Assembly (NCBI GenBank): GCA_964014485.1
Contig: CAXHAT010000002.1
Span: 1 to 64,000, forward strand
Source of the DNA: an uncultured Deferribacteres bacterium
GTDB lineage: Bacteria; Zhuqueibacterota; Zhuqueibacteria; Zhuqueibacterales; Geothermadaptataceae
DNA length: 64,000 nt
Reading direction: 5' to 3'
Both the position numbers and the translations under genes were made by a program. A model generated the notes under the pieces. It saw only the letters and a program-made list of their open reading frames with translations, was not told the DNA's origin and ran no database searches. How positions within the stretch are numbered: the first letter of the stretch is position 1; each line of letters opens with the position of its first letter. Positions 21,601 through 60,120 of the stretch are shown one piece after another.

Positions 21601-23594
21601 AATTGATTGTCAGCGAAAACGCGCCCTTCGAGCATGGCGGCTCTGGAAAATGTAAACGACGCCTGCGCCGTTTGGCCGGATTGCAAATTGATCGTGTAGG
21701 ACGGCGGAATGCTGTGATATCCCTCGTACGCAGCTTGGACTTTCCATGCACCGGCGGGCAGCGAAAATTCATAGCTCTCGCTGCGCCCGTTGACGACTTC
21801 GAAGGTCTTGCCCTGATTTTCGAGCTTGAATCGCACGCCGGACAAGGGCAGCCCGTTCTCATCGAGCAGCGTACCGCTGACTTTGGCGTCGCCGCGCGTC
21901 AGAACAATGTCGCCGATATTCGCCAAACCCAGCGCATCAAATGCGGGCACGGAAATTTCCTGTTGGCTGAACCCAAAGGCGGAGACGAACAGGCTGGCGG
22001 GTTTGTCGTCAGCGGCGAGGGCGAAGAATCCAAGACCGTCGGCTTTTTCCGGTTTGGCGGACGGGGCCGTCGCAATTTCGGCGAAAGGCACGGGCGAACC
22101 GTCGGGCTCGACCACGCGGCCAAGAACGAGCCGCTGCGCGGGTGAATGGCGAACAATTGCGTCAGCATTTTGACCGCCGCCTAATTCAACGTCGACCGAA
22201 GAGGGCGCATAGCCGCGAACATTGCTGGAAATGGTGTAATCGCCGGACGGCGCATCAAATTCGATGTTGCCGCTGAAGCCGGTGAAAAGAGAAAAAGGCG
22301 GCCCTACGCCTTGCCCCCGAGAAATTTCAATATCAGCGAAGGGGATGGCAGCGCCGGTGGCGCGATCTACGCTGCGGATTTGCAGCGTGCCTTTGGAAGA
22401 TTGAAAAGAAAACGTGCGCGGCGGCGAGGCGGAGTACGTGCGGGGATTTTCAGCAAAAACCGTCACTGTTTGTTCCCGGCCAATGATAAAATCACGCGCC
22501 AGGAATTGTGCGCTGGTGTCGACGGTGATTTTTTGCCAAAGTACAATCGAGCCTTCGCCGAGATTTTCGTCTTCGATCAGTTCCTGCAAAACAACGCGGT
22601 AACGGGTCGCTCCGGGGACGCCGCGCCAGCGAAAGTCGATTTGATCCGTGCTGACGGTGGCGTCCTGTCCCGGAGTAAGAATTTGCGGGACGGGTAAGCT
22701 CACGTTGGCGGCCACTTCAAATTGGGTGGCGAAGAGGGGGAACAGCTCAAAAGTGACGTTGCGCAGATCAGGAGCAAATGCGCTGAACACGACCCAACTG
22801 TAGGTTTCTCCCGGAATGAGCGGCGGCGTATTCTGATCCGGCCAGAATCCTGACAAATCCGTCTCGCCGTAGCGTATCGACGAATTTTGTGTAAAAGCCT
22901 GCCAAACGACGTTAATGCCGACAATGTTTTCAATCTCGCCAGTCTCGGGATCGGTTTCAATGGACAATTCACCCTGCGAAACGACGAGATAATAATACGG
23001 GACGCCGCTGATCGGCGCCCAGCTAAAAATTGGCTCGTCGTTGTCCAAATTGAGCGTGTTTTCCGGCCCGATGACGCGGACTGGCGCTGGCGGCTGGACG
23101 AAAATCGGGAATTCAATCGAGGTTTCATCAGGCGTATCGACGTCTTGCAGAATGCAGTAGTATATGCCGACCGGCAAGTCCGGAAAAACGTCTCCGACGT
23201 CGAGCCGTCCCTGGCCGACTAGGTTGACGGCTTCAGGGTAGGCGGCGGGATCGCCTCCGCCCGGAGATGTGCTGTAGCGAATGCGGCAGCGGCGCTGATT
23301 ATCGATCCAAGAAATGCGCAGCGTGTCTTCCTTGCCCTGAGAAACAAAAGCGCTGTTGATCGAGCGAATGGTGATTTCCGAGCGAATGTTTTCGGGAGAA
23401 GCGAGCCTGACGTCGATGGCGGCGGAAGCGTTGTTTTTTAAAATTGGCTGGGATTGAGCGACAAGAATCGTTGGAATTATGGAAAAAAGAATCGTTAGAA
23501 ACGGGCTTTGTACAAAATTTTTTACATGGCGGAAAAACACCTCTCTTGCCCCCTTCGAAAGGGGGATTTTCACCGCTTCGTTCCTGATCATCAC
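18633..23594 (-). CDS. Large secreted protein with many carboxypeptidase-regulatory-like (CnaB-type) repeats and a FlgD-Ig/T9SS-like C-terminal domain
   Basis: Repeated GxV...GxP+xxAxV...TDxxGxY/F...GY units; C-terminal PNPFSP...KIYNLEGQLV...WGG...NGRYI...KSLVLIR. Confidence 0.85.
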   Translation of the reverse strand: MMIRNEAVKIPLSKGAREVFFRHVKNFVQSPFLTILFSIIPTILVAQSQPILKNNASAAIDVRLASPENIRSEITIRSINSAFVSQGKEDTLRISWIDNQRRCRIRYSTSPGGGDPAAYPEAVNLVGQGRLDVGDVFPDLPVGIYYCILQDVDTPDETSIEFPIFVQPPAPVRVIGPENTLNLDNDEPIFSWAPISGVPYYYLVVSQGELSIETDPETGEIENIVGINVVWQAFTQNSSIRYGETDLSGFWPDQNTPPLIPGETYSWVVFSAFAPDLRNVTFELFPLFATQFEVAANVSLPVPQILTPGQDATVSTDQIDFRWRGVPGATRYRVVLQELIEDENLGEGSIVLWQKITVDTSAQFLARDFIIGREQTVTVFAENPRTYSASPPRTFSFQSSKGTLQIRSVDRATGAAIPFADIEISRGQGVGPPFSLFTGFSGNIEFDAPSGDYTISSNVRGYAPSSVDVELGGGQNADAIVRHSPAQRLVLGRVVEPDGSPVPFAEIATAPSAKPEKADGLGFFALAADDKPASLFVSAFGFSQQEISVPAFDALGLANIGDIVLTRGDAKVSGTLLDENGLPLSGVRFKLENQGKTFEVVNGRSESYEFSLPAGAWKVQAAYEGYHSIPPSYTINLQSGQTAQASFTFSRAAMLEGRVFADNQLTAGATVTLTADSDGKTQTTTSDNFGVYSFDAPAGLYQLTAVKDGFAPFQTSVQLLDGMKTELDVTLSRASIIWGTVRTEETQAPLTNVEIVATSNGQALAVTDANGVWSFIAEAGRAYLLDASLPGFVSDGVMPVSVAEGDSARVDFLMNPASAVIRGLVRNADGAVANAQVNLIGRGRSIRTDEQGLFEISVEPGDYSLQAMLGCQSSQIMETSVALGQAADIVLELTGVATSVTGFVFDQFGQPIFDASIFAAGQENFTARTDSSGAYQLCLEPGPYFLLASRVGYANQDTSIIVANVDSLGGVNFFLPENFGTIQGRVQSDFGEPLSGVQVIFVNTFQQIVTSSNAAGIFTFEKIIPGEATIFTRSDDFFADPLNVVVPARETIEPTITMFRNDGFLSGRILDGFTDAGIEGALVVAQVQGTATFVQALSTAPNGEYRIDGLPVAPGRVFRVLASKEGFRQAAPLDSVEVNQENIDFALFATNATIGGTVVSADENLPVSSATVRLLRPGEITREFQTGDDGAFLFSGLTFTFEYSLEISHPNFKAQVFSINAPNDSLQIALDRIFSFMQGRVTRAGTDDGFPDARVIFASLDAFARSDTTTSGLDGRFFAQVFPGQYRVLAQAPLFFSTPSQHLVELAPNDTSVVLDFSLESQVLASLAIQGPTEILGGEQDGSQYSVAAVDTAGRSVNSVPNLLWSVDLGADTASVSSTGFLSTDSGYIGDLKVSVLAEEFGVRDTLEVNVLGVLRPEKELRFFGRFGQRIEFAENLFNSQFTIRSSVANLLPLQNVEEDFRIVSEIFRISPENIEFEAPAVFSLPVPAGVDAAQVTILRWNNLLSVWEDRTAVESVATSDSGRVAREILQGGDYALAEFSAALGILDLQITPNPFSPTRQNQFGEPGVAIAFSVTSNRVALPSVTAKIYNLEGQLVAILADRQPVFKGPQHFSWGGTTIDGRQARNGRYILHFSVNDGDKKKEQLKSLVLIR

Positions 23595-26831: not shown

Positions 26832-27389
26832 TTAACCGGCTAAGGACGGACGCCAATTATTTTTGCTGTTGAAAATCCAATAATTACATGCTCGGTCATG
26901 GACATAACCTTGTCTTATGTTGCTGGACGAAATGTCCATGTTGTCGGAAGTGCGGGAGCGAGGCTTGGTAACAATTCTAATTTCCTTCAATTTTCTTTTC
27001 TTTCTAAGTCGATTGAACTCAAGGAACAGGTCGTAATATTCGCTCGTGACTAGCGCGTGCGTTATTTTGCTTCCATCGTCGTTTTTGTTTGAAAGGTCTT
27101 TGCCCAAATGCCGCCTGCTGGGCAACGGGCGAATGCTATACTCGATTTTTTTTCCCAATTGCTCGCACAATTCGTCGATGAATTGCTGGATGCGTTGCTT
27201 TCGAAATTCGTAGGGAAGAATTTTATACTTTTTGTTTTTGTTGGCGAATCCGTCGCTCGAAACATAGATCAAAGCGTTTTTGCTAATTTCAAACGCCATT
27301 CGAATATACTCTTTGTGCCCTTTGTGTAAAGCGTCAAACGTGCCGCCAATGACAATGCGTCGTTCATTATCATTATGATTATTAGACAT
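26832..27389 (-). CDS. HxGH nucleotidyltransferase resembling archaeal/eukaryotic-type phosphopantetheine adenylyltransferase
   Basis: IGGTFDALHKGH, SSDGFA..KK.KILPYEFR, FNRLRKKRKLKEIRIV, DISSSNIRQG. Confidence 0.8.
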   Translation of the reverse strand: MSNNHNDNERRIVIGGTFDALHKGHKEYIRMAFEISKNALIYVSSDGFANKNKKYKILPYEFRKQRIQQFIDELCEQLGKKIEYSIRPLPSRRHLGKDLSNKNDDGSKITHALVTSEYYDLFLEFNRLRKKRKLKEIRIVTKPRSRTSDNMDISSSNIRQGYVHDRACNYWIFNSKNNWRPSLAG

Positions 27390-27606
27390 GATTTTTCATC
27401 CTGAAATAATTGCGGGGACGGCCGCTAATCCTTAGCGCCCCCCAGATTACGGGTATCAGCAAAAAAATTTCGTTTTATTATACTTTCTATTTCCGATCAA
27501 TGCGGATGCGCCGCCCGCAGCCGACGATTCCTTCACTGCCGAAACTACCGCTCTATTCGAAACAAGGAATGTTATAGAGTCAGCAGGAATAATATCAGGG
27601 AGGAGT

Positions 27607-30600
27607 ATGATGAAAAATGAAAGCAATGGCGCCTTGAGCAAGCTCAGCGATTTTATTTCCAAACTCACTGACGCAAATCATACATTGCTTGCAAATTATC
27701 ATCATTCAGAAAAGCGCATCGTTTGCGAATTTTGCACAAAGACATGCGACAAAACACATGCATCAAATTGTTCGTTCAGTTTGGTAAGCGCTTCAGGCAG
27801 AACTCAAACTTATTTTGAAACGGGCTTTTCTAAAGGAGTCGTTTATTCTCCGAAAAAGGGAGAAATATTTGAAACGGAAACCAAGATTTTCCCATTGGTC
27901 GAAAGGGAAGCGCCGCCGTTTAATACGATTATACTTGAATTGTCTGGGAATCGCGACTTTGGGGAATCGGAAATCAGCCTCATGCATATCGCAGCTTATT
28001 TTGCGATAGACGCATTAGAGCGCGATGCTAACAATCTTCGCATGATTGAAAAATTGAATTTGTTATCCCACGCAAGCAACGGCCTTCTGAAGCAGGTCGA
28101 ACACACGCAACTTACTCGAAAACTCGACGACATTGTGAAGACGGCCGCACTGGCGTTGGATGCTGAATTATGCACGCTTTGGCGCGTGCGAAACGGAAGC
28201 GTCGCTATAGAAACGAGTTATTCGCAGAGCGGAAAAGTCTTAGCGTCTGAATCTGAGTTTTCCCCCATCGCGCCTACGCCTGAAGACGGTATAACGGGTT
28301 ACATTGTCAATGAACTCGCGGAGAAAAAAGCGCCTGTTTACATCAACAAAAAGCAGCTTGACAAGCTTAAACGGGAGCGTTCGCGAAAATATTTGAAACC
28401 GGTTGATTTTACGAAATCCGCTGACACATACTGCGAATTGGCTTCTCCTATTCTCGACGACGGCGGGCGTCTTGTCGGGGCGCTTTTGGCTTACAACAAG
28501 CTGAACGCCGAAGGCGAGCCAATTCAAGGTTGCGGGTTCGACGAAAAACTTGATGGCCCGTTGGTCAAGATCCTCTGTTCCAAAATACACATCGCTTTGC
28601 AGAACGCAGATCAAGTACGAGACCTTAACAGTTACAAACTCATCATTGAAAGCACCCCGGACCCGGTCATTATCTCTGACCGTACCGGGCGGATTACTTA
28701 TATCAATCCGGGCGCTTTCAATATTTTCGGCGATTTAAAAGGGAAAAATGTTCTCACCCAGTATGTTGACAAAGACGGACAAATTAATGAGACTGAAGCC
28801 AGAGACGTCAGGCGGAATCTGTTAAATTCGCCCAAGAAACGACTGACGGATTATGAAACGCATTTCAAGAGCATTTCCGGCGAGATTATCCCTATCAGCT
28901 TGTCTGTCAGTTTGTTGCATGACGAAAACGGCGATGAAGCCGGGACGATTGGAATCGCCAAAGACTTGCGCCGTTTCAAAGCCCTCTCGGACGTCAGTCA
29001 GTCCTTGTTAGAAACGCATGAAGCGGATGAAATCCTTGAGAGCATCACGGTCTTTTCGCGAGAACTGCTGAACTGCAAACGCGCTTATATCAAAACATAT
29101 AAAGAACGAGACAATACGCTGGCTTTTCGGGAAATCAGCTCAGAAATTTCCGGGGAAAAGCTGCCTGTTCTCTCTACTCCTGTGGCGGCTGGCATGACAG
29201 GCTATGCCTTCGAAAATAATCAGTCCGTAATGGCCGGCAATCTCAGCAAAGAGCCGCTCTATGATTATGACCCCGTTTTTCCCAACGTTGAATCAAAATT
29301 AGCTGCGCCAATTGCGTGCGAGGACGGGACCACGGGTGAAATTCGAAGGCTGGGCGTTATCAGTGTTGACAGCGAGGAAATAGACGCATTCACGAGCAGC
29401 GACCTGGCTTTTCTACGGACGTTGGCAAGCAGCGCGGCGATCGCTCTGAAAAATGCCGAAACAATCCAGACGCAACAAAAAAGCATTGCCCGGCTGGCCG
29501 CTTTTGACAGAGTTCAGCAAGCGACCTTGCAAGAACAGCCGGATCAGGATCAAATATACGACGCTTTGCTGGATGCGGCTGTTGATACATTGGGGTTTGG
29601 CTACGCGGTCGTCGCTACGGTTGACAGAAAAAAGCAAATAATCAAGTCTGTCAAGGGTCGAAATATCCCGCATGATTTTCTTGAAAGTCCGGCTCATCAT
29701 CTCAACAGTAAGGATATCCAAGCCTGGGTGGTCCGGAACAAAGAGAGTGAGTATTTGGACGGCTGGGACGAGCGGCTCGATAAGGAAATTTATGAGAAAT
29801 ACGACCACGAAAACCTCGTTCGCATTTTCATTCCGATTATTGCACGCGGTGAAGTTCTGGGGACGCTAGAAGCTGGCTACCAAAAAGCTGACAAGCAACG
29901 TATTGAAGAGACTGAGATTCACACGCTCAATCAGTTGGTCAACCTTGCGGCCAGCGGCATGGCTCACATCATTTTGCTCACCAAGCTAAAAGAAGATTTG
30001 GCGCTTCGCACTTCGCTTGAGAACCAACTTGAAACGCTTAATCAGGCAATCTTGAAAATCATGGACGCTCAGAACGAGCAAGAAGCCGCAAAAATTATCT
30101 TTTCCAACCTCGAAAAAATCGGTTATAAAAAAGGGCTGTTGTCCCTGATAAACGACGGCACGGGAAAACTCGAAGGGAAATATGCGAACGGGAAGAACTG
30201 GGGCAGGCTGAAAAGCAGGCTCTCCTACGGTTTGTCAGGAAAGAACATTCTCGCTCAGGCGCTCAGAACCCGCTCGCCGATTCTTGCCAAAAACAGCTTA
30301 CAAGACCACCGCTGGAACCGCAAAATCGCGGCGGAATCGAATATCCTTTCCCATTATGTCATTCCCTTGACGGTGCAAAATGAGCCGATTGGCGTGCTGC
30401 AAATAGACCTTTCAGACGACCAGAAATTGGTTCATGGGGACAAGGCGGTTTTTCAGCGGAAAATGCAGATTCTAAATACTTTCGCCAACCAATGCGCCAT
30501 TGCGATTCGGAATATTCGGCAATTCATGATCATCAAAAACCTGGAAACGAATATCGCTGAAACCGCGCATGAATTCCGCAGTCCGCTTCACAATATCATG

Positions 30601-31275
30601 ACGCAGGTCGGGGGGCTGCGAGAGTCGCTTGAACTCGATGAGAACCAGGAAAGCATCTCACAATTCGTCGAAGTGATCGAAGAAGAAATCTATCGTGCGA
30701 AGCGCCAGGTCGATAACTCGTTGCTGCTTACGGAGCATACAAGAGAAGCGATGGAATTCAACTTTCGTGAAGGGCGGATTCAAGACATAGTTCACGTCTG
30801 CGTGGACGCCTACAAGTTGAGAGCGCTAGAGCGCGGCATACGCTTCATCGTCCCCGAGAGCGTTTTGCACCTCAAGCCCTTTGCTTTTGATCACGACCGT
30901 ATGAAGCAGGCGATCACCAATCTCATTGATAACGCCGTAAAATACTCGCACTACCACCAATTTATCCACGTTTCGGGCAATGACGACGGGACGCAAATTA
31001 ATTTGGAAATTGCAGACCGAGGCTTAGGCATTCCGCCCGATCAGTTCGAAACCATTTTTGAAGGATTTCAACGAAGCGATGCAAAAGATGAAATTCGATA
31101 CATCCCGGGAACCGGCCTCGGGCTCAAAATTTCGAAAGAGATCGTTGAGCGCCACGGCGGCCGAATCGCAGTTATGAGCGATCCTTATTCGCGGAACCCT
31201 TTGAAAATTGAACAATTGCAGGATTACAAAACAGTGTTCAGGCTGACGCTCCCCAAAAAACAAAAGAAGAGGTAG
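27607..31275 (+). CDS. Soluble multi-sensor histidine kinase (GAF-PAS-GAF-GAF-GAF-HisKA-HATPase)
   Basis: GAF-type segments (GITGYI, GMTGYA...SKLAAPI, FIPIIARGEVLG, VIPLTVQNEPIG); PAS DPVIISDRTGRITYINP; AHEFRSPL, NAVKY, DRGLGI, GTGLGL; no TM helix seen. Confidence 0.9.
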   Translation: MMKNESNGALSKLSDFISKLTDANHTLLANYHHSEKRIVCEFCTKTCDKTHASNCSFSLVSASGRTQTYFETGFSKGVVYSPKKGEIFETETKIFPLVEREAPPFNTIILELSGNRDFGESEISLMHIAAYFAIDALERDANNLRMIEKLNLLSHASNGLLKQVEHTQLTRKLDDIVKTAALALDAELCTLWRVRNGSVAIETSYSQSGKVLASESEFSPIAPTPEDGITGYIVNELAEKKAPVYINKKQLDKLKRERSRKYLKPVDFTKSADTYCELASPILDDGGRLVGALLAYNKLNAEGEPIQGCGFDEKLDGPLVKILCSKIHIALQNADQVRDLNSYKLIIESTPDPVIISDRTGRITYINPGAFNIFGDLKGKNVLTQYVDKDGQINETEARDVRRNLLNSPKKRLTDYETHFKSISGEIIPISLSVSLLHDENGDEAGTIGIAKDLRRFKALSDVSQSLLETHEADEILESITVFSRELLNCKRAYIKTYKERDNTLAFREISSEISGEKLPVLSTPVAAGMTGYAFENNQSVMAGNLSKEPLYDYDPVFPNVESKLAAPIACEDGTTGEIRRLGVISVDSEEIDAFTSSDLAFLRTLASSAAIALKNAETIQTQQKSIARLAAFDRVQQATLQEQPDQDQIYDALLDAAVDTLGFGYAVVATVDRKKQIIKSVKGRNIPHDFLESPAHHLNSKDIQAWVVRNKESEYLDGWDERLDKEIYEKYDHENLVRIFIPIIARGEVLGTLEAGYQKADKQRIEETEIHTLNQLVNLAASGMAHIILLTKLKEDLALRTSLENQLETLNQAILKIMDAQNEQEAAKIIFSNLEKIGYKKGLLSLINDGTGKLEGKYANGKNWGRLKSRLSYGLSGKNILAQALRTRSPILAKNSLQDHRWNRKIAAESNILSHYVIPLTVQNEPIGVLQIDLSDDQKLVHGDKAVFQRKMQILNTFANQCAIAIRNIRQFMIIKNLETNIAETAHEFRSPLHNIMTQVGGLRESLELDENQESISQFVEVIEEEIYRAKRQVDNSLLLTEHTREAMEFNFREGRIQDIVHVCVDAYKLRALERGIRFIVPESVLHLKPFAFDHDRMKQAITNLIDNAVKYSHYHQFIHVSGNDDGTQINLEIADRGLGIPPDQFETIFEGFQRSDAKDEIRYIPGTGLGLKISKEIVERHGGRIAVMSDPYSRNPLKIEQLQDYKTVFRLTLPKKQKKR

Positions 31276-31277
31276 TT

Positions 31278-31721
31278 ATGACCAAAACGCTATTCGTGGA
31301 GGATGAGCCGAGGGGAGTGAATCCGTACTTTACCGGTCTGAAACGAAGAAGCATAGAGTGTGAGTTAGCCCAAAACTTTGATGAAGCGCTATACAAATTG
31401 GAACGCGGTCGCTACGACCTGGTGTCTTTAGACCTTAACTTCGCTCGCGGCAAAAACAGACTTGCCCAGTTCGATCCGCTTTCCGCGGGCTTAAAGCTTT
31501 TGGAATTGATCCGTGGCGGAAAGATAAAGAACTGCCCGGATGACGTCGTTGTCATTGTCCTAACGGCCTCCAGCAGCAGGTCTGTTGAAAAACAGATTAA
31601 GTCGCTGGGCGTGTTTGAGTATTTGACAAAACCCGTCGATTATCGTTCTGTCATGGCAACGTTCGAGCGAGCTCAAGGGCATTTGCTTGCACAAAAAAGC
31701 TCCGGTCAAAACAATGAATGA
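31278..31721 (+). CDS. Single-domain response regulator
   Basis: LFVEDE, SLD (phospho-Asp), VLTA, TKP; no output domain. Confidence 0.9.
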   Translation: MTKTLFVEDEPRGVNPYFTGLKRRSIECELAQNFDEALYKLERGRYDLVSLDLNFARGKNRLAQFDPLSAGLKLLELIRGGKIKNCPDDVVVIVLTASSSRSVEKQIKSLGVFEYLTKPVDYRSVMATFERAQGHLLAQKSSGQNNE

Positions 31722-34700
31722 TAACCCATTTGTTTTTAATCAACCTGTTGATCCCAAAAACAATCGTTCGGTTTTTTTTCATCGCGAACGCAGCTTGAAA
31801 AAGGCCGTTCTGAATATCCAGGCAGGCGAATGGCTTCTGATCACCGGGCCTCGGAAGTGCGGTAAATCCAGCTTTATCCGACAATTGCACAGCCTGCTCG
31901 GTGAGTATGGTTCTGGAGCATTTTGCTGCGTTGTAGAAAATACGGGAGCTCTGCTCTCGGATGATTTTAGCAAATTCGCCGACGACTTAATTGCAAAACT
32001 TGGAAAAACCTTAAAGCTTCAATCCTCTGCTAAAAAGCGACTTTTCAACGATTCGACCGACCTTAAGACTGCGCTTGCTGACCTCATTAAACTCACGAGC
32101 GCTAAAACGAGAATCGTCATCGTAATTGACGGTTTTGAGAATGCTTCATCCAAATTTGCTCGCGAACTGTTTGCTCAAATATCCAGAATTTTTTGTTCGC
32201 TTCCCGCCGAGCCGGATTTGCGAAAAATTCAATTCATATTTTCAGGAAGTTTTTCAAGCGAGAACATTAGCCTGGAAGATGAAGGCTTCCTTCGAGAATC
32301 TTCAACGACAATTGAGCTGAAAGACGTCGGTTTCAGCGAAAGCAACAGGATGCTGGAGAAGGTTTGCGCGCGGTACGATATCACGCTCGAACCGGGCTTT
32401 ACACGATTGATTTATGAAGAAACCCAAGGCACGCCCTACCTGATTCAGAGAATATGCAGCGCCATCGTCGAAAACGCGCTATTGAGCCGTAAATCGCCGG
32501 TTTTTGCAAAACAGGAAGCTGAGAAGGTTCTCTCAGAGTTTGTTAAAAACGGCGACGCTTTGCTCGAAAAAATTGTAAGAACTGTAGAACAAAGCCAATC
32601 GCTGCTCAAGTCGTTGGTCAGATTTTTCTCGAACAGTGCTGTTAAGCAGTCACGATTGGACAGAGAATTAAGCCGGTTGCACGCCCTCGGCGCTCTCAGT
32701 TTTAATAGCGGCGTTTTCAGGTTTCGAAACCCGCTGTTTGCAAGATTTTTTCAAGGGTATTTTACGACTGAGCGATTGACGAAAATTTATATTTCACATC
32801 GCGACTTTTTGGCTGCAGGAAAAACTCAGGCCGCCTCTCAAGCTGCGCATCAAAATGCTGAAGACGCTCTGCAAAGCTTGCTGGCAAACGCCCAACGTTT
32901 CGAAGAAATTTCGAACAGCTCTGGTTTGATCGAAAAGGTTTTGACCGTCTTTTTGAAGTCGATTGAAGGCGCGCATCATTGTGGATTATTCGTATTCGAT
33001 GAATTAAGCAAGAAAATTCATGTAAAGGACATGGTTGGCCCGGCGACAAAAGCGCTCAAAGGTTTCAGGGCTAGATTTGGAGAAGGGGTCACTGGAGCGG
33101 TGTTCCAAACCGGAAAAGCGCGGATCATTAAAGATGTAACGGATGAAATTGAAACGCCGGATTTCATCGTACGTCAGGAAGCTGAACGTTTGAACCTGGG
33201 AGCAATGGCCTCACTCCCTCTGGTTGCTCACGGTGAGGTTTTCGCCGTCGTCAATTTGTGTCTAAGCAAACCTTACGTCATCACGCCTAGTGATGAGAAA
33301 CTGTTGAAGACCATGGCGTACCAGGCAAGTCTTGTGCTTCAGAATTTTCCAGCCAGAATGAACGAAAATTCTCGGCGGCTTGAAATGCTTGAACAAGTTT
33401 TTGAAGCCGTCAACACTCACATTGATTCAGAAATCGCCTTCAATCACATCCTGACGGCTTTTGCTAAAATGCGGAATCAAAAAACGGTTTTTGTAGCATG
33501 GCAAGAGCAGAGTAACTTGGTGTGGCGTTTCAAATTTAATCTCGAGGAGGCTGACGTTTCTGCTTCATTGAGTTTGGGGATGAACTCAATCGACAGTCGC
33601 CCGTTAGGAAGCGCGGAAGCGTTGCTTGGCGCTGCCAAGAAAGTTTTGAAAGAAGGACGCCCAGGGTATAATGTTTCTGAATGGCGGTGGGTTCAGTTCG
33701 CTCAGGCCTGGCCGATTAAGTGCGATTCCGACAGGGTTGGTTATCTCGTCGCAGCTTCGCCTCGCAAACGAAAAACGTCTCGGTTTGAAGCCGGACTATT
33801 TGCATTGTTGGCCCAAATGTGCGCGGCTGTTATTTCCAAAAAACGAATCTACAACGTTGCGCGCAAAAAGACGGACCAGTTTGTGAGTCTTGCCGGGGTC
33901 GGTGAATTTATTAGCAAACAATTGAATGAGAAAGAATTGTTAGGACGCATTGCCCAGGCAGGATTAGATGCTATAGACGGGGTTAATAAGAGCGTTCAGG
34001 TCCTGCTCAAAGAGAACGAGAAAGAGCAGTTGGTCGTGAAGGCGGTTCAAGGGGGGAGCTCTTGTGCTCTAAAAGTCGATGACGTTGTGCCTTTTTCTGA
34101 TGATACGCCGTTAACGCGAGCACTACGAGAAAAAGAGCTTCAGCTTTCAAAGCCAAACAATCGAAAAGGAGCTACTGATAGAAAGGAGCAAGAAGACACT
34201 TCTGAATTTGCCGCGCCGATTGTTTTTCAAGAGGAGGTTTTGGGCGTTATTTCCGCCAAGAGCCGGGGACGAACCGACGCTCGCGAATTGAACAAGGAAT
34301 CTTTGCAAGCCTTGTCGCGAAATGCGGCAATCGCAATCAAGGTCGCGGATCTGTGCGGTAACCAGCTTCGTGAGCTTCAAGTTTTGTATGGAACGGGACA
34401 GAAAATCGTGGTGATGCGCAACATAGATCAGATTTTGAGAACGATCTGTCTCTCGGCGCTGCGAGCTTTTGGCAGTCACGAGCGTCTGGTTTCGATTTAT
34501 CTTCTTTATGAAGCGGACAATCGGATCGCCCGCAAGTTTAGTCGAGGATTCAAACGCAAATATAATGGCGATACGCAGGTCCGATTAGAGCAAAACGCGT
34601 TCTATGAGCTTGTTGTGAATAGACGCAAGCGCGTGTTTATTCCAGATATCAGCATCGGCCCCAAATTCCGGCCCAGCTCGCCGGACATAAAGTCCGCCTT

Positions 34701-36009
34701 GGTTGTGCCAATTTTGATAAATAGTCCGGCAAATGGATTCGTTGTCATGGAAAGCGAAATTGAGGATGACTTTGGCGACGCAGAATTTAGACTCCTGAAG
34801 GGATTGGCCGACCAGGCAGGCATTGCAATTGAAAATGCAATGCTAAAAAAAGAATTGGCCCAAACACAAACAGCGTTCGAGCTTGCGGCAATTGAAGAAG
34901 CGTTTGCCGAGATCGCGCACGACATTCGCAACGTTTCTACCATGATTAGCGGTGAAACGCAATGGCTTGTGAAAAACCAAAAGGACGGCGTTGTTAGTTT
35001 TGCGGAGGTAGAAGCCGCCGCCTTGAAAATTGAAGCGCAAGTCAAAAGAATCGAAACTTTGGCGAACCCCGCGGATCATATGCACAAGCTGCCGCCTGTG
35101 TTAAAGCCGGTAGATATTGGCGATTTGTTAAATGAAGCGATTGCGCTTGTTGAAACTTCTGCGCACGAAGATGGGATAAGAATCAGATTAATTCAGCGCG
35201 GTGTTAAAACAAAAATGCCTGCCGACGGCCATAGATTGGTTCGCGCCTTCTTCAATATTTTAAAAAATGCTGTGGATGCAAGCCCTCCGGGCGGGGCTAT
35301 TAAGATTTCCGTGATGCAAACGGAAAATGAGTTCGTTGTGCAATTCGTCGATTCCGGTAAAGGTATCGATGAAGAAATACAGCATAAAATCTTTACGCCG
35401 CTTTTCACAACAAAAACCACTGGTTCCGGTCTCGGACTTTCTTTGACCAGGCGCATTATTGAGCGTGATCACGGCGGAAGCCTGAGCGTTGAAAGCAACT
35501 TGGGCGCGGGGACGACGGTTTGCGTATCACTGCCAATCAAACCTCAAAAAAAACGAGAAGAGAAATTGATTGATCCGATCGTTTCTATGCCCGGTCAAAC
35601 TGATGTCGGCGGTTTAAAGGTGCAGCATAAACATATTCTTGTTGTCAACGATGAAACGGACTTGCTGCAAAGAATTCAACATACGCTGCAAGATTCCGGT
35701 TTTATGACGACGGGGATGGAGCGTGGCGCTGAAGCGGTGAAACTCTGCAAGAAAAAACGCTACGATCTTGTTTTGATGGATTTTGATCTCAAGAAAGACA
35801 CGAGTGAAAACAGGAACGCTTCGGACTTTCTTCCTGAAATCCGCAATTTGCTGCCCGAAACGCCTATAATTATCACTTCAGCTTCGGTGTCGAAGAATGA
35901 ATTGCCGCGAAAAAACTATAACAGCTTTTTGGAAATTAATTCGACCTTTTGGACTCAATTGAGTTGCATTGTGGACGATTTTCTGCATAATAGTGCGAAA
36001 GGAGCTTAA
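31714..36009 (+). CDS. STAND-like P-loop NTPase fused to GAF domains, a histidine kinase and an atypical receiver
   Basis: NPFVFNQPV...FFHRE, Walker A GPRKCGKS, Walker B IVIVIDG, GxP TQGTPYLIQRIC; several GAFs; IAHDIRN, NAVDA, DSGKGI, GSGLGL; REC ILVVNDE...LMD. Start assigned to ATG 31714, overlapping the upstream stop. Confidence 0.85.
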   Translation: MNDNPFVFNQPVDPKNNRSVFFHRERSLKKAVLNIQAGEWLLITGPRKCGKSSFIRQLHSLLGEYGSGAFCCVVENTGALLSDDFSKFADDLIAKLGKTLKLQSSAKKRLFNDSTDLKTALADLIKLTSAKTRIVIVIDGFENASSKFARELFAQISRIFCSLPAEPDLRKIQFIFSGSFSSENISLEDEGFLRESSTTIELKDVGFSESNRMLEKVCARYDITLEPGFTRLIYEETQGTPYLIQRICSAIVENALLSRKSPVFAKQEAEKVLSEFVKNGDALLEKIVRTVEQSQSLLKSLVRFFSNSAVKQSRLDRELSRLHALGALSFNSGVFRFRNPLFARFFQGYFTTERLTKIYISHRDFLAAGKTQAASQAAHQNAEDALQSLLANAQRFEEISNSSGLIEKVLTVFLKSIEGAHHCGLFVFDELSKKIHVKDMVGPATKALKGFRARFGEGVTGAVFQTGKARIIKDVTDEIETPDFIVRQEAERLNLGAMASLPLVAHGEVFAVVNLCLSKPYVITPSDEKLLKTMAYQASLVLQNFPARMNENSRRLEMLEQVFEAVNTHIDSEIAFNHILTAFAKMRNQKTVFVAWQEQSNLVWRFKFNLEEADVSASLSLGMNSIDSRPLGSAEALLGAAKKVLKEGRPGYNVSEWRWVQFAQAWPIKCDSDRVGYLVAASPRKRKTSRFEAGLFALLAQMCAAVISKKRIYNVARKKTDQFVSLAGVGEFISKQLNEKELLGRIAQAGLDAIDGVNKSVQVLLKENEKEQLVVKAVQGGSSCALKVDDVVPFSDDTPLTRALREKELQLSKPNNRKGATDRKEQEDTSEFAAPIVFQEEVLGVISAKSRGRTDARELNKESLQALSRNAAIAIKVADLCGNQLRELQVLYGTGQKIVVMRNIDQILRTICLSALRAFGSHERLVSIYLLYEADNRIARKFSRGFKRKYNGDTQVRLEQNAFYELVVNRRKRVFIPDISIGPKFRPSSPDIKSALVVPILINSPANGFVVMESEIEDDFGDAEFRLLKGLADQAGIAIENAMLKKELAQTQTAFELAAIEEAFAEIAHDIRNVSTMISGETQWLVKNQKDGVVSFAEVEAAALKIEAQVKRIETLANPADHMHKLPPVLKPVDIGDLLNEAIALVETSAHEDGIRIRLIQRGVKTKMPADGHRLVRAFFNILKNAVDASPPGGAIKISVMQTENEFVVQFVDSGKGIDEEIQHKIFTPLFTTKTTGSGLGLSLTRRIIERDHGGSLSVESNLGAGTTVCVSLPIKPQKKREEKLIDPIVSMPGQTDVGGLKVQHKHILVVNDETDLLQRIQHTLQDSGFMTTGMERGAEAVKLCKKKRYDLVLMDFDLKKDTSENRNASDFLPEIRNLLPETPIIITSASVSKNELPRKNYNSFLEINSTFWTQLSCIVDDFLHNSAKGA

Positions 36010-36060: not shown

Positions 36061-37437
36061 ATGAGTTACTATAAATTGCTCATCGTTGACGATGAAGCCG
36101 GAATCAGGGAGCAGCTTCTTCGCTGGCTAAACAATGAGGGCTTTTCAGCCGAGCAAGCAGCCGCGGGACAGGAAGCGCTCAACCTGCTCAAGAAGCGAAA
36201 TTTCAATATCGTTTTGCTCGATTTGCGACTGCCGGACATGAGCGGATTTCGAATCCTTGAAGAAATCCGTAAAAGTTATCCGGATATTTGTACGATCGTT
36301 TTGACTGGTTACGGCAATGATGCGTCGCTTCAGGAAGCGCGGAAGGCGGGAGCTTTCGATTTTTTGACCAAGCCGTTTCAATTTTCCGATTTGGGGGGAA
36401 GGATTGACGCCGCCATGCGTCAATTCATGAAGCACAGAGAAGTTGAATCGCAAACGGAAGAGCAGCGACGTCATTTCCAATTTGAAAATATCATTGGCGA
36501 AAGCCCGGCTATGCAGCAGGTCTACGACAAAATAAAGACCGTTGCACCCACCGATGAAACAGTCCTCATTCTCGGAGAAAGCGGCACCGGCAAAGAGCTT
36601 GTCGCGGGAGCCATTCACTACAACAGCCGACGCAGGCAACATCGTCTGATCATGGAAAATTGCAGCGTCATTCAGGCGAATCTCGTTGAAAGCGAATTGT
36701 TCGGGCATGAGAAAGGCGCTTTTACCAGCGCCTCGGCAAGAAAGATCGGCAAATTTGAGTTGGCGCACGAGAAGAGTCTTTTTCTCGACGAAATCGGAGA
36801 ACTCTCACTCGCTTTACAAGTGAAGTTTTTACAGTTCTTGCAGTATAGGACTTTTGAAAGAGTGGGCGGCAACGAGCCCATTCAGGTTGATGTTCGCGTT
36901 ATCGCTGCAACCAACAAAGACTTGCCCGAGGCCGTGGAAAACAAAGAATTCCGCGAAGACCTTTTTTATCGTTTGGATCGATTTTCTATTCGCGTTCCTC
37001 CGCTCAGGGAAAGGGTTTCAGACATTCCGCTTTTAGTTAATCATTTTATCAAGAAGGCTAATAGGCGCAATAATCAAAACGTCGAGGGCGTTTCGGACAG
37101 CGCGCTAGACCTTTTGCAGAGCCATGATTATCCGGGAAACGTTCGAGAACTGGAAAATATTATCGTGCAAGCGATGCTCTACAACACAAAGCCGATCATA
37201 CAAGCGGATACAATTCGAAGCTGCATTCGGCCGAGCAAGGCGATGAACGGTAAAATGCACTTTCACGACATGGCTTATCGCGAAGCAAAGGAAATATTTG
37301 AGCGTGCCTATTTTGCGCAAATGCTTGAATTAACAAACGGCAACATTTCTCGCGGCGCGATCAAGGCTGGATTGGACAGGACGTGGTTTCGTAAAAAGCT
37401 GAAAGAACTGGGGCTTTGGACCGGGGGGGCTGATTGA
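36061..37437 (+). CDS. NtrC/AtoC-family sigma54-dependent response regulator
   Basis: REC (IVDDE, LLD, TKP), GESGTGKE, ESELFGHEKGAFTSA, LFLDEIG, REDLFYRL, PGNVREL, Fis-like HTH. Confidence 0.95.
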   Translation: MSYYKLLIVDDEAGIREQLLRWLNNEGFSAEQAAAGQEALNLLKKRNFNIVLLDLRLPDMSGFRILEEIRKSYPDICTIVLTGYGNDASLQEARKAGAFDFLTKPFQFSDLGGRIDAAMRQFMKHREVESQTEEQRRHFQFENIIGESPAMQQVYDKIKTVAPTDETVLILGESGTGKELVAGAIHYNSRRRQHRLIMENCSVIQANLVESELFGHEKGAFTSASARKIGKFELAHEKSLFLDEIGELSLALQVKFLQFLQYRTFERVGGNEPIQVDVRVIAATNKDLPEAVENKEFREDLFYRLDRFSIRVPPLRERVSDIPLLVNHFIKKANRRNNQNVEGVSDSALDLLQSHDYPGNVRELENIIVQAMLYNTKPIIQADTIRSCIRPSKAMNGKMHFHDMAYREAKEIFERAYFAQMLELTNGNISRGAIKAGLDRTWFRKKLKELGLWTGGAD

Positions 37438-48600: not shown

Positions 48601-49546
48601 ACTTGAGAACATTAATTTTCAGCCAAAAACCGCCATCCGCGACGTGCATCAGATTCTGAGTTTCCAAGCTGAAGGAAAAAACGTTGATTTTTCGGCGCAG
48701 GTCGATCCTCAAATCCCAGAGACTGTTTACGGTGATCCGGAACGGCTCAAACAGATACTCCTGAACCTTACGCAAAACTCAATCAAGTTTACGCAAGAAG
48801 GCGCTGTCCGGCTCAGGGCTGATTTAGAAAAAATTACCGATACGGAAGCGCTCATACGGTTTTCCGTTTCGGATACGGGCGTAGGCATTCCCCAGGATCG
48901 GCTTGATGACCTGTTTCAACCGTTTGCGCAATTAGACACGTCCACTACTCGGAAATTCGGCGGGACCGGGCTTGGGTTAAGCATTGTAAGGCAGCTTGTC
49001 GATTTGATGGGCGGGGGAATTGAAGCGGAAAGCGAGGAAGGCAAAGGCTCGCGGTTTCGGGTGACTATTCCTTTTGCAACGCATCGAGACGAGTTTAAGG
49101 AAAACGGCTCTGATTTGCTGAGAGGCGAAGGCTTTGCTCCGCGCACTGGAGATGCGTCTCATTCCGCGACTCATCTTTTGCTCGTCGAAGACGACGTTAC
49201 CAACCAGGCGGTGGCGTCGCTCATTTTGCAAAAGCTGGGTTACCAGGTGAACATTGCTTCGAACGGCAAAGAAGCGCTCGAATTTTTGAAAAACGAAAGC
49301 TGCGATCTGGTGCTGATGGATGTGCAGATGCCGGAAATGGACGGCTTTGAAACGACGCAAATTATTCGCGACCCGAATTCTGAAGTCAAGAATCATGAGA
49401 TTCCGATCATTGCGATGACGGCGCATTCAATGGAAGGCGACCAATTGCGCTGTCTCGCCGTCGGTATGAATGACTACGTCTCGAAGCCGTTCGAGCCCGA
49501 AGTATTACACCAAACTATTCAGAAGTATGCAAAGGCCGAAGCATGA
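45614..49546 (+). CDS. Hybrid sensor histidine kinase with periplasmic beta-propeller and Y_Y_Y domains
   Basis: Many D..G.+W+GT..GL repeats, YAYKMEG...YTNLPPG, PPFWKT plus TM helix, [30 protein letters not shown]...SKP. Confidence 0.95.
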
Positions 49547-50331: not shown

Positions 50332-50371
50332 AACGCAGGAACGCCGGGCTAGCCGGCAGAGCTGGAGCATT

Positions 50372-59996: not shown

Positions 59997-60104
59997 AGTT
60001 TTCGCAATCCTCAATACTTCAGCTTTGCTATAAAAGATTGGCCGCTTCCATGTACATTTTCCCGGAGGGTGTTCAGGCAGGCGATAATGCGTGCTTCGCG
60101 CCAA

Positions 60105-60120
60105 AGCAATTAATATGCCA
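60105..60120 (-). promoter_or_regulatory. Putative sigma54 (-24/-12) promoter of the kinase-FHA genes
   Basis: Minus strand reads TGGCATATTAATTGCT: near-consensus with exact spacing. Confidence 0.65.

Follow-up and report, generated by a model that had tools for sequence, protein, structure and literature searches.

Histidine kinases and STAND/AAA+ switches are among the main signalling devices of prokaryotes, and their coupling within one polypeptide is not known to have been studied. The question of such coupling is raised by an open reading frame located in the 64,000-nucleotide stretch of DNA analysed here (the window). The original prediction, made from the letters of the window, described its product as a STAND-like NTPase fused directly to a GAF-rich hybrid histidine kinase. 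It is therefore asked whether the fusion is real, to which family the NTPase belongs, and how the nucleotide-binding part may act on the kinase.

Reality of the fusion

The reading frame 31714..36009 (+), whose predicted coordinates proved correct, encodes an NTPase-GAF-kinase-receiver protein of 1431 aa. In the open reading frame listing, the frame is 31687..36009 and begins with TTG. The ATG at 31714 (MNDNPF...) gives the same start as the N-termini of the homologues (M-x-x-NPF) and shares 8 nt with the end of the receiver gene 31278..31721. All of the motifs named beforehand are present in the translation: the leader NPFVFNQPVDPKNNRSVFFHRE, the Walker A GPRKCGKS (residues 45-52), the Walker B IVIVIDG (134-140) and GTP (239-241) of the NTPase, followed by the H-box AHDIRN (H1069) and by VVNDE, LVLMDFD, ITSAS and FLEINSTFW of the kinase and receiver. 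The parts of the protein are the following.

31714..32763 (+), AAA+ NTPase core, helical lid and winged helix, residues 1-350 (Pfam, AF2, fold matches)
31846-31869 (+), Walker A, within the NTPase core
32113-32139 (+), Walker B (IVIVIDGFE), within the NTPase core
32764..32913 (+), helical linker between the winged helix and GAF1, residues 351-400 (model helices 352-361 and 365-379)
32914..33348 (+), GAF1, residues ~401-545 (best GAF_2 stretch 405-543)
33376..33888 (+), degenerate GAF-like segment, residues ~555-725 (by alignment, the counterpart of the second GAF in relatives)
33901..34353 (+), GAF3, residues ~730-880 (GAF_2; SpoVT_C, GAF-like, at 800-864; alignment)
34381..34839 (+), GAF4, residues ~890-1042 (GAF_3 at 926-1041)
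34861..35088 (+), DHp helices with H1069 (AHDIRN) (NCBIfam AtoS/ZraS alignments 1054-1282; two long model helices)
35206..35559 (+), HATPase_c with the N, G1, F and G2 boxes (89.2 bits)
35629..35988 (+), divergent receiver with N1312-D1313, D1356, S1389 and FLEIN 1405-1409 (Response_reg, model)

The NTPase is joined directly to the GAF-rich hybrid kinase, and no Ser/Thr kinase domain is seen by Pfam, as predicted. No transmembrane segment was found in the 1431-aa protein, in which the highest 19-residue hydropathy (1.59) lies within GAF1. The protein is a soluble, genuine multi-input hybrid histidine kinase. The source genome is a draft of 465 contigs, in which assembly or gene calling might join an NTPase gene to a kinase gene. 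The probability of such an artefact is negligible, as the gene is one unbroken frame of 1431 codons in the middle of a 123-kb contig. The full-length architecture is common to 12 independent MAG loci, and single open frames of 1130-1582 aa occur in 15 other genomes of the phylum. This recurrence among relatives led to the rejection of the artefact and establishes that the fusion is real. Of the sequencing data listed, none are RNA; the three DNA entries come from a single study, may include the source sample, and therefore do not count as independent support.

Fold and family of the N-terminal module

The first 350 residues are recognised, by profile and predicted fold, as an AAA+ nucleotide-binding module of the ATPase_2/AAA_35 assemblage, built of a P-loop core, a helical lid and a winged helix, a layout shared with ORC/Cdc6 and with STAND/NLR switches. 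The Pfam family ATPase_2 (PF01637) matches residues 21-245 of the whole protein with 52.0 bits, and the domain by itself scores 55.2 bits. Both values exceed the gathering threshold of 33.2, and the match spans profile positions 1-223 of 225. For AAA_35 (PF14516), whose cut-off is 27 bits, the score rises from 23.9 with the whole protein to 27.8 when only residues 1-380 are scanned, a match spanning profile positions 26-330 of 331. The nSTAND1 score stays below its cut-off of 27.1 in both scans (22.6 and 26.1 bits), and the Pfam scan of the protein gives no match to NACHT or NB-ARC. In the language-model features, the closest Atlas clusters are AAA_35, nSTAND2 and NACHT/AAA_16.

The AF2 model of the module (pLDDT 92.8, pTM 0.91) bears out the winged-helix-like end that had been proposed. 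The best Foldseek matches are 2fna_A (E 1.2e-9) and 2qen, and the re-ranking by VIA-align gives Z 21.6 for 2qen, 19.9 for 2fna, 18.9 for ORC2, 18.7 for the TIR-NLR WRR4A, 18.4 for CED-4 and 16.3 for Apaf-1. Residues 11-377 of the model superpose on residues 125-482 of CED-4 (Z 18.4), and the plant NLRs reach Z 17-18.7. The two-copy complex prediction for residues 1-380 (score 0.00, mark 0.42) speaks neither for nor against self-association.

Leipe, Koonin and Aravind are said to have defined the STAND features in 2004 as a P-loop core, a lid with GxP, a winged helix and an hhhhDD/DE Walker B, together with oligomerisation that depends on ligand and nucleotide. The module has the P-loop core with the Walker B Asp, the GxP of the lid (G239-T-P241) and the winged helix after the lid, but not an acid directly after the Walker B Asp (D139-G140), nor a match to any curated nSTAND, NACHT or NB-ARC profile. 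"STAND-like" is a fair description, since the NTPase-lid-winged-helix layout superposes on CED-4 and the plant NLRs. Strict STAND membership fails: the family is ATPase_2/AAA_35, nSTAND1 is below its cut-off, and ORC2/Cdc6 match equally well.

Walker B signature of the kinase-fused NTPases

The glycine noticed in the Walker B motif (G140) indeed follows D139. A new observation is that the 14 kinase-fused NTPases examined all lack the canonical Asp-Glu or Asp-Asp (10 DG, 3 DS, 1 DN) and all carry an acid at position +3 from the Walker B Asp, which is E142 in the protein of the window; the unfused relatives have DE or DD in 63 of 77 cases. In the alignments, G50, K51 and D139 show little or no variation within the family, and the lid signature G-x-x-[YF]-L-[IVA]-Q-K-I-C is strongly conserved among the relatives. 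The G239 of the GxP is also invariant, and its Pro is kept in only 5/14 kinase-fused rows; in 5/14 the first Walker A Gly has given way to C, S or A. Few parts of the protein diverge as strongly as the module, which shows 17-30% identity.

Weak hydrolysis had been suggested on the grounds of the glycine. Because the +3 acid is kept in all 14 kinase-fused relatives, a displaced catalytic acid appears equally possible, and E142 could still support hydrolysis. The NACHT NTPases have a comparable DGxDE arrangement. In the tree of the NTPases (FastTree only), all 22 kinase-fused rows, i.e., 21 matches and the protein of the window, fall into one 34-row region (SH 84 for this cluster). The NTPase of the window belongs to the starred 12-row clade, consisting of 11 kinase-bearing rows and one GAF-only row (1078 aa). 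Given this clustering, the association of the Walker B loss with the fusion may go back to a single event or a few, and need not result from repeated selection.

GAF array, kinase core and receiver

About four GAF domains were expected. Three of them are clear by Pfam (GAF_2 collects 123.8 bits in 3 stretches of the whole protein), but the second one is degenerate. Residues 555-725 scanned alone give no Pfam match at E<=1e-4, yet in the alignments they fall on the second GAF of those relatives for which Pfam reports four; the count is therefore three GAFs and one degenerate. In the downstream kinase core, H1069 is invariant in 13/13 aligned sequences, and the HATPase_c residues N1185, D1213, G1215, G1217, G1239 and G1241 are nearly invariant. 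Pfam HisKA does not match the DHp of the 1431-aa protein. With the DHp His and the N, G1, F and G2 boxes in place, the protein is a sensor histidine kinase.

The fused receiver matches Response_reg with 45.6 bits against a cut-off of 30.2, over profile positions 1-83 of 111 only, and its model has the full (βα)5 fold (block pLDDT mostly 71-93). The profile and the predicted fold agree on a CheY-like receiver. The CheY-like quintet is incomplete, as the first acid is N1312 and no Lys follows β5 (FLEIN), and this pattern is the same in 15/15 sequences. The reading of ND for DD and of a missing Lys is thereby upheld. The accompanying idea of a pseudo-receiver is not, since none of the 15 aligned sequences departs from the acceptor Asp1356 or from Ser1389, and the full (βα)5 fold is predicted; N1312, D1313, A1390 and W1413 are likewise invariant in all 15. 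Because the acceptor Asp, the Ser and the fold are kept, together with the invariant Asn-Asp and the absent β5 Lys, the receiver is divergent but conserved rather than decayed.

Four-gene module

The NTPase-kinase gene is the third of four genes read in the same direction. The other genes and a candidate promoter are as follows.

27383..27410 (+), sigma-70-like promoter candidate, TAGACA-16-AATAAT after TG, in the 217-nt gap upstream of HK1
27607..31275 (+), HK1, first module gene, encoding a 1222-aa soluble GAF/PAS/GAF x3 HisKA-HATPase_c kinase (Pfam)
31278..31721 (+), lone receiver of 147 aa with canonical ED...D...T...KP, starting 3 nt after the end of HK1
36061..37437 (+), NtrC/AtoC-type sigma-54 activator (REC, sigma-54 AAA+, Fis-type HTH), last module gene (Pfam)

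The downstream regulator matches Sigma54_activat with 223.9 bits, and HTH_8 weakly (16.8 bits against a cut-off of 22). The promoter candidate is a consensus match only, from a region in which 16 sigma-70-like sites were found and 11.0 were expected. The terminator scan around the operon gave no convincing site, with promoter and terminator counts near chance. Scanning the window for the sigma-54 -24/-12 consensus with <=2 mismatches returned 11 matches against 33.8 expected, which is below chance, and no candidate sigma-54 target promoter adjoining the module. No Hpt domain was seen in the four-gene module.

Orthologues of the NTPase-kinase lie inside the same module in 12 MAG loci (Calditrichaeota, KSB1 and unclassified), with the order GAF/PAS kinase, lone receiver, NTPase-GAF-kinase and sigma-54 activator; the domain content was checked by Pfam in 5 of the 12. 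The NTPase-kinase is present in 12/12 loci, HK1 and the lone receiver in 11/12 each, and the sigma-54 regulator in 9/12. In the 3 loci without the regulator, the contig ends 51-513 nt past the NTPase-kinase gene. The HK1 orthologues are 38-61% identical across 11/12 loci, a range that holds for the three operon partners together, whereas the NTPase-kinase shows 26-34% identity. Such ~2x faster divergence could mean relaxed constraint and not a finely tuned switch. Among the NCBIfam models, the core of the NTPase-kinase is closest to AtoS/ZraS, the downstream regulator to AtoC and HK1 to WalK/PhoR-type kinases, all below the equivalog cut-offs. The AtoS/ZraS-like core and the AtoC-like regulator offer a hint of their pairing.

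Extent of the family

The word-indexed search with residues 1-380 returned 1 match, being too insensitive at ~30% identity, and exhaustive HMMER was used instead. Among 1.84 billion representatives, it gave 752 matches at E<=1e-3. HATPase_c was found in 14 of the 21 top matches scanned. With a purpose-built HMM, the kinase core was recognised in 21 of the best 150 NTPase clusters (752 matches in all). The architecture is thus not singular, and no characterised member was found. The word-indexed profile search gave 21 matches at E<=1e-50, mostly generic GAF/PAS kinases, and is of no use for counting; its match P0164 (1274 aa, 1554 bits) is a probable family member by score and length alone.

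The family occurs chiefly in the large-genome, uncultured Calditrichaeota and KSB1 lineages. At E<=1e-5, Pfam detects no NTPase family in 7/14 kinase-bearing relatives scanned, and the relatives carry no public name other than "GAF domain-containing protein" or "signal transduction histidine kinase". The fusion is therefore under-counted by architecture databases. In the literature searched, which lies outside subscription journals, no description of the NTPase-GAF-kinase architecture was found. The accessible portions of PMC7159879, PMC5847659 and PMC1592074 do not describe it, and a survey that names "STAND ATPase" among its domains (Methods) gives no detail of a STAND-kinase architecture. 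As far as this literature goes, the NTPase-capped GAF histidine kinases are an undescribed family with a conserved four-gene signalling operon.

Relation to known systems

The best matches in both sequence and fold are the archaeal ATPase_2 proteins SSO1545 (2fna) and PABY2304 (2qen), with Z 19.9-21.6 over 312-314 residues and, for 2fna, a phmmer match to the module at E 0.011. They share with it the F-x-x-R-E leader, the P-loop, the GxP lid and the winged helix. However, both stand alone, at ~350 aa, and their Walker B is canonical (LDEAQE in 2fna), whereas the module is fused to GAFs and a kinase and has D-G; their PDB titles give no function. The STAND/NLR proteins (CED-4, Apaf-1, plant TIR- and CC-NLRs, MalT, Avs) have the same NBD-lid-winged-helix layout, with Z 15-18.7 over ~290-314 residues and MalT at Foldseek rank 12. 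In them, too, a single polypeptide joins the NTPase to sensor and output domains. Their sensors are repeats and their effector is an N-terminal death, TIR or nuclease domain, in contrast to the GAF array and C-terminal histidine kinase found here. The AAA_35 proteins (TPR, WD40, PD40 and TIR/EAD7 fusions) belong to the same wider sequence family, in which the kinase-fused relatives score 51-88 bits, but they keep the hhhhDE Walker B and a G-H-P lid motif and have no kinase. Within the same genome, paralogues pair ATPase_2 or nSTAND1 with TPR or WD40.

Kinases with comparable input are also known. Ser/Thr-kinase-AAA_16-GAF-histidine-kinase proteins of cyanobacteria and myxobacteria have a P-loop NTPase of the STAND neighbourhood upstream of GAF and kinase; here, in contrast, Pfam finds no Pkinase and the NTPase is ATPase_2/AAA_35-type, at the extreme N-terminus. 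The N-terminal domain of KdpD binds ATP. This domain (PF02702) is not AAA+/STAND, and KdpD is membrane-anchored, with USP, one GAF and an OmpR-type partner. It is a precedent for an N-terminal sensory region ahead of GAF and kinase core, the region being cytoplasmic and the core EnvZ-like according to the accessible part of PMC8214093. In AtoS/AtoC, ZraS/ZraR and NtrB/NtrC, the kinase likewise adjoins a sigma-54 activator. The scores are far below the equivalog cut-offs: 148.4 bits against 646 for the core with AtoS, 124 against 479 with ZraS, and 421.2 against 714 for the regulator with AtoC. The locus differs from these pairs in its input domains, in having a receiver fused to the kinase and in its additional kinase and receiver genes.

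Proposed mechanism and alternative readings

The preferred reading, given slightly more than even credence, is a nucleotide- and GAF-gated hybrid kinase that feeds the adjacent NtrC-type regulator within the four-gene module. The domain anatomy, fold, motif states, conservation of family and operon, and lack of membrane segments are computed; that the module binds nucleotide and hydrolyses it slowly, which way the signal runs and which partners exchange the phosphoryl group are inferred. The N-terminal module would bind nucleotide via the intact P-loop and Walker B Asp. It would probably be a slow or non-hydrolysing nucleotide-state switch and not a motor, because the catalytic Glu beside the Walker B Asp is lost across the kinase-fused group. 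Its conformation or self-association would be relayed via the helical linker and the four-GAF array, in which three domains look ligand-competent and one is degenerate. The array would then act on the catalytically complete DHp/CA core, leading to autophosphorylation at His1069. The phosphoryl group would most likely pass to the sigma-54 activator encoded 52 nt downstream, and the fused receiver, with Asp1356 kept and the β5 Lys absent, may be an internal modulator or phosphate sink. A second input to the module would come from the GAF/PAS kinase and the lone receiver encoded upstream.

Other readings have to be weighed against this one. The N-terminal module may be a dead ATPase, acting as a fixed scaffold or oligomerisation platform, with regulation coming from the GAFs, the partner kinase and the receiver. 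This is unlikely, but it deserves real weight given the loss of the canonical Walker B Glu/Asp in every kinase-fused row, the altered first Walker A Gly and GxP Pro, and the high divergence of the module. The invariant or nearly invariant P-loop GK[ST] and Walker B Asp, the +3 acid and the conserved lid signature nevertheless fit a maintained nucleotide pocket. A bacterial NLR-style switch natively wired to a two-component output, in which GAF ligand and the nucleotide loading of a hydrolysis-crippled AAA+/STAND-like module would promote a higher-order assembly that activates the kinase by induced proximity, and in which the family-wide loss of the Walker B Glu would have evolved to prolong the ON state, is a somewhat more doubtful proposal. 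Its model is the effector activation by assembly in apoptosomes and resistosomes, and, if true, such control would differ from the usual intradimer helix-rotation models of kinases.

Improbable is a conflict or immunity sensor of NLR type, whose module and GAFs would detect an invader or second messenger and whose kinase-sigma-54 output would serve defence. The more distant NTPase relatives are fused to TIR, EAD7, TPR or WD40 (P0033, P0031, P0042), combinations that Kaur et al. 2020 (PMC7159879, in its accessible part) place in conflict systems, and the NTPase-kinase evolves faster than its operon partners. However, the PADLOC scan (PADLOC-DB 2.0) assigned the NTPase-kinase to no defence family and gave P-loop-level matches only (best mad8, 21.5 bits, residues 25-76). 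The gene is single-copy, its four-gene module is stable and has syntenic neighbours in 4/12 loci, and no mobile or defence genes adjoin it. Hardly any more probable, and if anything less so, is DNA binding in the manner of ORC/Cdc6, which would make the module a tether of the kinase to a chromosomal site or a one-component regulator. The AF2 model has a winged helix, and ORC2, Cdc6 and Orc1 rank near the top of the structural matches (Z 16-18.9 over 250-318 residues), both in line with it, but equal scores come from CED-4 and the NLRs, which do not bind DNA through that domain. The closest matches, 2fna and 2qen, have titles without a function, and the four-gene module already includes a dedicated DNA-binding output protein.

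Significance

The regulation in Calditrichaeota and KSB1 is essentially unexplored. The family is a compact, soluble test case, with its Asp-Gly/Ser signature in the Walker B motif, its fixed four-gene context and the readout by a sigma-54 activator. The NTPase-GAF-kinase proteins could reveal the way in which a two-component kinase is gated by a nucleotide switch.

Architecture of the NTPase-kinase and its operon

The open frame of the NTPase-kinase runs without interruption from a TTG at 31687 to 36009 on the plus strand. The ATG at 31714, proposed in the original prediction, is the better start, because all full-length homologues have M-x-x-NPF N-termini (the product begins MNDNPF) and because the frame from this ATG runs 8 nt into the end of the upstream gene (31278..31721), as is typical of coupled genes. 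Every motif listed in that prediction is present in the 1431-residue product, numbered here from ATG 31714.

Motifs in the translated product (plus strand)
Leader NPFVFNQPVDPKNNRSVFFHRE, N-terminal part
Residues 45-52, Walker A GPRKCGKS
Residues 134-140, Walker B IVIVIDG
Residues 239-241, lid motif G239-T-P241
H1069, H-box AHDIRN
Receiver motifs VVND, LVLMD(1356)FD, ITS(1389)AS and FLEINSTFW

Pfam matches of the whole protein (score against cut-off, bits)
21-245, ATPase_2, 52.0 against 33.2
34-347, AAA_35, 23.9 against 27
16-240, nSTAND1, 22.6 against 27.1
Three stretches, GAF_2, 123.8 against 28.6
1171-1276, HATPase_c, 89.2 against 26.4
1308-1395, Response_reg, 45.6 against 30.2 (profile positions 1-83 of 111 only)

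Scanned by themselves, residues 1-380 score 55.2 for ATPase_2, 27.8 for AAA_35 (barely above the cut-off) and 26.1 for nSTAND1 (barely below it). About four GAF domains had been predicted, of which three are clear. The remaining segment, 555-725, gives no Pfam match of its own when scanned separately, yet in the alignment it falls on the second GAF of those relatives to which Pfam assigns four, and the count is therefore three GAFs and one degenerate GAF.

The gene is the third of a conserved four-gene module, with intergenic gaps of 2, -8 and 51 nt. Orthologues were counted by BLAST of the module proteins against the ORFs of the 12 loci that a scan of one genome per species returned.

The four-gene module and its orthologues
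27607..31275, plus strand, HK1, the partner kinase (GAF/PAS/GAF x3-HisKA-HATPase_c): 11 of 12 loci, 38-61% identity; the twelfth contig starts within the module
31278..31721, plus strand, lone receiver: 11 of 12 loci, 38-55% identity; none found in L019
31714..36009, plus strand, NTPase-GAF-kinase-receiver: 12 of 12 loci, 26-34% identity
36061..37437, plus strand, NtrC/AtoC-type sigma-54 activator: 9 of 12 loci, 41-59% identity; the remaining 3 contigs stop 51-513 nt past the NTPase-kinase gene

By record title, the twelve loci come from one Calditrichaeota MAG, three of candidate division KSB1, seven unclassified 'bacterium' and one labelled uncultured Gammaproteobacteria. The architectures were confirmed by Pfam in five of the loci. 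No Hpt domain was detected by Pfam in the module, and none of its four proteins contains a hydrophobic stretch of membrane-helix strength (the top 19-residue hydropathy, 1.59, lies inside GAF1). In the locus L019, HK1 and the NTPase-kinase are only about 257 nt apart (5289-5546), and this gap yielded no lone-receiver ORF. In a KSB1 MAG (L024:9600-13859), a separate 132-aa receiver gene directly follows a 1278-aa NTPase-GAF-kinase, a natural split form, and forms of about 1275 aa missing one GAF occur in the search hit P0006 and the locus L017.

Within the same loci, the NTPase-kinase diverges about twice as much as its three partners (26-34% versus 38-61% identity); the NTPase, GAF2 and GAF3 are its most divergent parts (17-32%) and the kinase core is the least divergent (30-48%). 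The HK1 N-terminus (27607-28206) carries a Cys-rich stretch, C-x2-C-x3-C-x8-C in the window, whose cysteine positions are partly common to seven of eight aligned orthologues (among them L015, L018, L019, L021, L022 and L023) and absent in L024; through it, HK1 may sense a metal or the redox state. The only shared flanking gene is a cytidylyltransferase-like gene transcribed away from the module (26832-27389, minus strand), found in L018, L019, L021 and L023 (4 of 12 loci) at 38-43% identity.

Fold and affinity of the N-terminal module

With AlphaFold2 and 91 aligned rows of relatives, residues 1-380 give a confident model (mean pLDDT 92.8, pTM 0.91). It has an α/β P-loop core and a helical lid, and it closes with the helix-strand-helix-hairpin pattern typical of winged helices; a winged-helix-like end had been anticipated in the original prediction. 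The Foldseek ranking against the PDB is headed by the archaeal ATPase_2 proteins 2fna (E 1.2e-9) and 2qen, followed by RFC, ORC/Cdc6 and RuvB, with MalT at rank 12. The top 1000 chains were re-aligned with VIA-align, in which rows no more than one Z unit apart are tied.

VIA-align scores of the model
2qen, PABY2304 (ATPase_2), Z 21.6
2fna, SSO1545 (ATPase_2), Z 19.9
1w5t, ORC2, Z 18.9
9qlv, plant TIR-NLR WRR4A, Z 18.7
2a5y, CED-4 (model 11-377 on 125-482), Z 18.4
7dfv, RPP1, Z 17.7
5juy, Apaf-1, Z 16.3
9jap, EfAvs5, Z 15.1

By this rule, ORC/Cdc6 and the STAND proteins are equally similar to the module. Neither 2qen nor 2fna, the nearest structures solved, is assigned a function in its PDB title, and 2fna is also the sole PDB match by sequence search (E 0.011). 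The nearest ESM Atlas clusters by language-model features are AAA_35, nSTAND2 and NACHT/AAA_16. The prediction of a STAND-like N-terminus stands in part: 'STAND-like' is a fair wording for the fold and layout of the module, and by profile it appears to be a member of the ATPase_2/AAA_35 assemblage.

Origin and spread of the fusion

An exhaustive HMMER search with residues 1-380 against 1.84 billion cluster representatives returned 752 matches at E<=1e-3, of which 71 reach 1e-10 and 7 reach 1e-30; even the top match shares only 32% identity. Pfam found HATPase_c downstream of GAFs in 14 of the 21 top matches scanned, with a receiver as well in seven of these 14; in seven of the 14 the NTPase family goes unreported at E<=1e-5. 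HMMs built from the family alignment detected a kinase core in 21 and GAFs in 23 of the best 150 of the 752 hits, so the proposed direct NTPase-GAF-kinase fusion is both real and recurrent. In a FastTree of 151 NTPase domains, a quick method with several long branches flagged, all 22 kinase-fused rows (21 hits and the window protein) fall within a single 34-row region (SH-like 84). There the NTPase-kinase sits in a starred 12-row clade of 11 kinase-bearing rows and one 1078-aa GAF-only row. The kinase-fusion label requires at least three changes on this tree, and the fusion therefore likely arose in one or a few events.

The kinase-fused NTPases define a family, whose members are publicly named only 'signal transduction histidine kinase/CheY-like chemotaxis protein' or 'GAF domain-containing protein [candidate division KSB1 bacterium]'. 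Within the phylum of the window, 17 of 167 genomes (its own included) have one match each at E<=1e-15, a tally that partly rests on two genomes marked unpublished (G158, G162). Sixteen of these matches are each contained in one open frame, 1130-1582 aa long; the remaining one, a weak match, falls in a frame of 525 aa. NTPase-domain identity is only 27-29% even between genomes of the same family.

An assembly or gene-calling artefact is excluded by the uninterrupted frame, the same fusion in 12 MAG loci and the single frames in 15 other genomes of the phylum.

Walker B and lid changes

The glycine noted at the usual Walker B acid position is correctly read and extends to the whole group. In the 91-row alignment, none of the 14 kinase-fused rows (window included) has Glu or Asp after the Walker B Asp (DG 10, DS 3, DN 1), whereas the 77 unfused rows include 56 DE, 7 DD, 4 EE and only 3 DG, two of which bear GAFs and are probably truncated family members. 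Loss of the acid is therefore a derived and fixed feature of the kinase-fused clade; since the fused rows cluster on the tree, the association may reflect few independent events. The lid also differs: the wider family has hhhhDE at Walker B and T-x-G-H-P-Y-L-x-Q in the lid, the kinase clade G-[TMA]-x-[YF]-L-[IVA]-Q-K-I-C with Pro retained in 5 of 14 rows. At +3 from the Walker B Asp, all 14 fused rows have Glu or Asp (IDGFE in the NTPase-kinase). The weak hydrolysis suggested in the original prediction may follow from the Walker B change, but the conserved +3 acid could also substitute, as is proposed for the DGxDE motif of NACHT proteins.

Kinase core and fused receiver

Pfam HisKA finds no match in the NTPase-kinase. 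The predicted intact H-box is present: across 13 aligned members of the family H1069 does not vary, and the residues of the N, G1 and G2 boxes hardly do. Modelled with AlphaFold2 at lower overall confidence (pLDDT 74.3, 15-row alignment), residues 1040-1431 form two long DHp helices, a CA domain and a receiver with the whole (βα)5 fold, most blocks of which have a pLDDT of 71-93. In the C-terminal alignment N1312-D1313, the acceptor D1356, S1389-A1390 and W1413 are invariant in 15 sequences, and the Lys after β5 is absent from all eight receiver-bearing sequences of the full-length alignment (D-x-F-L-E-I-N-x-x-F-W). The ND for DD and the missing Lys had both been predicted. The receiver is thus atypical in two of five canonical positions, strongly constrained and in possession of its acceptor Asp, and the label 'pseudo-receiver' is not established.

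Other signalling genes of the window and genome

The same genome (G000) has paralogous ATPase_2/nSTAND1 NTPases in classical STAND-style fusions:
C89, L009:5323-8763, ATPase_2+TPR, 1146 aa
C118, L010:3432-5420, TPR+ATPase_2, 662 aa
C382, L011:240-2228, ATPase_2-like protein, 662 aa, beside PEGA and FG-GAP/fn3 genes
C120, L012:1874-6409, nSTAND1+WD40, 1511 aa

A second dense kinase cluster (45614-52318, plus strand) of overlapping or abutting genes encodes a 1310-aa Reg_prop/Y_Y_Y hybrid kinase, a small, 262-aa HisKA_2 kinase and a protein of 671 aa in which two receiver stretches are combined with a PAS and a HisKA/HATPase_c core. The only one-mismatch sigma-54 -24/-12-like element in the window, TGGCATATTAATTGCT (60105-60120, minus strand; overall matches are below chance), directly adjoins the start called for a Ser/Thr kinase-PEGA gene (57144-60104, minus strand); an FHA-FG-GAP gene (54719-57103, minus strand) comes next. 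At 18633-23594 (minus strand), a 1653-aa protein with nine CarboxypepD_reg repeats precedes a 503-aa ORF without a Pfam match.

Proposed mechanism and significance

The computation establishes anatomy, fold, motif states and conservation; the further steps are inferred. The NTPase module would bind nucleotide and work as a slow switch, whose state, together with GAF ligand occupancy, would reach the DHp by way of the helical linker (352-400). The adjacent sigma-54 activator would be phosphorylated from His1069. Such a pairing is hinted at by NCBIfam, where the NTPase-kinase is AtoS/ZraS-like (148 and 124 bits over 1054-1282, both far below the equivalog cut-offs) and the activator AtoC-like, whereas HK1 is WalK/PhoR-like. 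The fused receiver may modulate the kinase or drain phosphate, and HK1 with the lone receiver would supply a second input.

The main alternative is that the NTPase is a dead scaffold, but the invariant GK[ST], Walker B Asp and +3 acid point to a maintained pocket. A role in defence or conflict is suggested only by fast divergence and by distant NTPase relatives fused to TIR/EAD7; PADLOC, however, gives P-loop matches only, and the gene sits in a signalling operon that is stable. ORC-like DNA binding by the N-terminal module is possible, its sole support being the resemblance of the modelled fold. Known NTPase-containing kinases are built differently. The Ser/Thr-kinase-AAA_16-GAF-kinase proteins named in the original prediction carry an extra kinase domain. 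In KdpD (PMC8214093) the N-terminal domain is another one, and the protein is anchored in the membrane and includes a USP domain. The Methods of an S-helix survey (PMC1592074) name 'STAND ATPase' among the surveyed domains, without detail. Full-text searches of openly accessible literature turned up no account of a family with the ATPase_2/AAA_35-GAF-kinase architecture, nor of the operon.

The NTPase-kinase is a sensor kinase whose STAND/ORC-like nucleotide module is undescribed, often left unannotated, and marked by a clade-specific Walker B change. Its architecture is one more item within the very large combinatorial space of kinase inputs, and the family is conserved, soluble, experimentally tractable and linked to a clear hypothesis.
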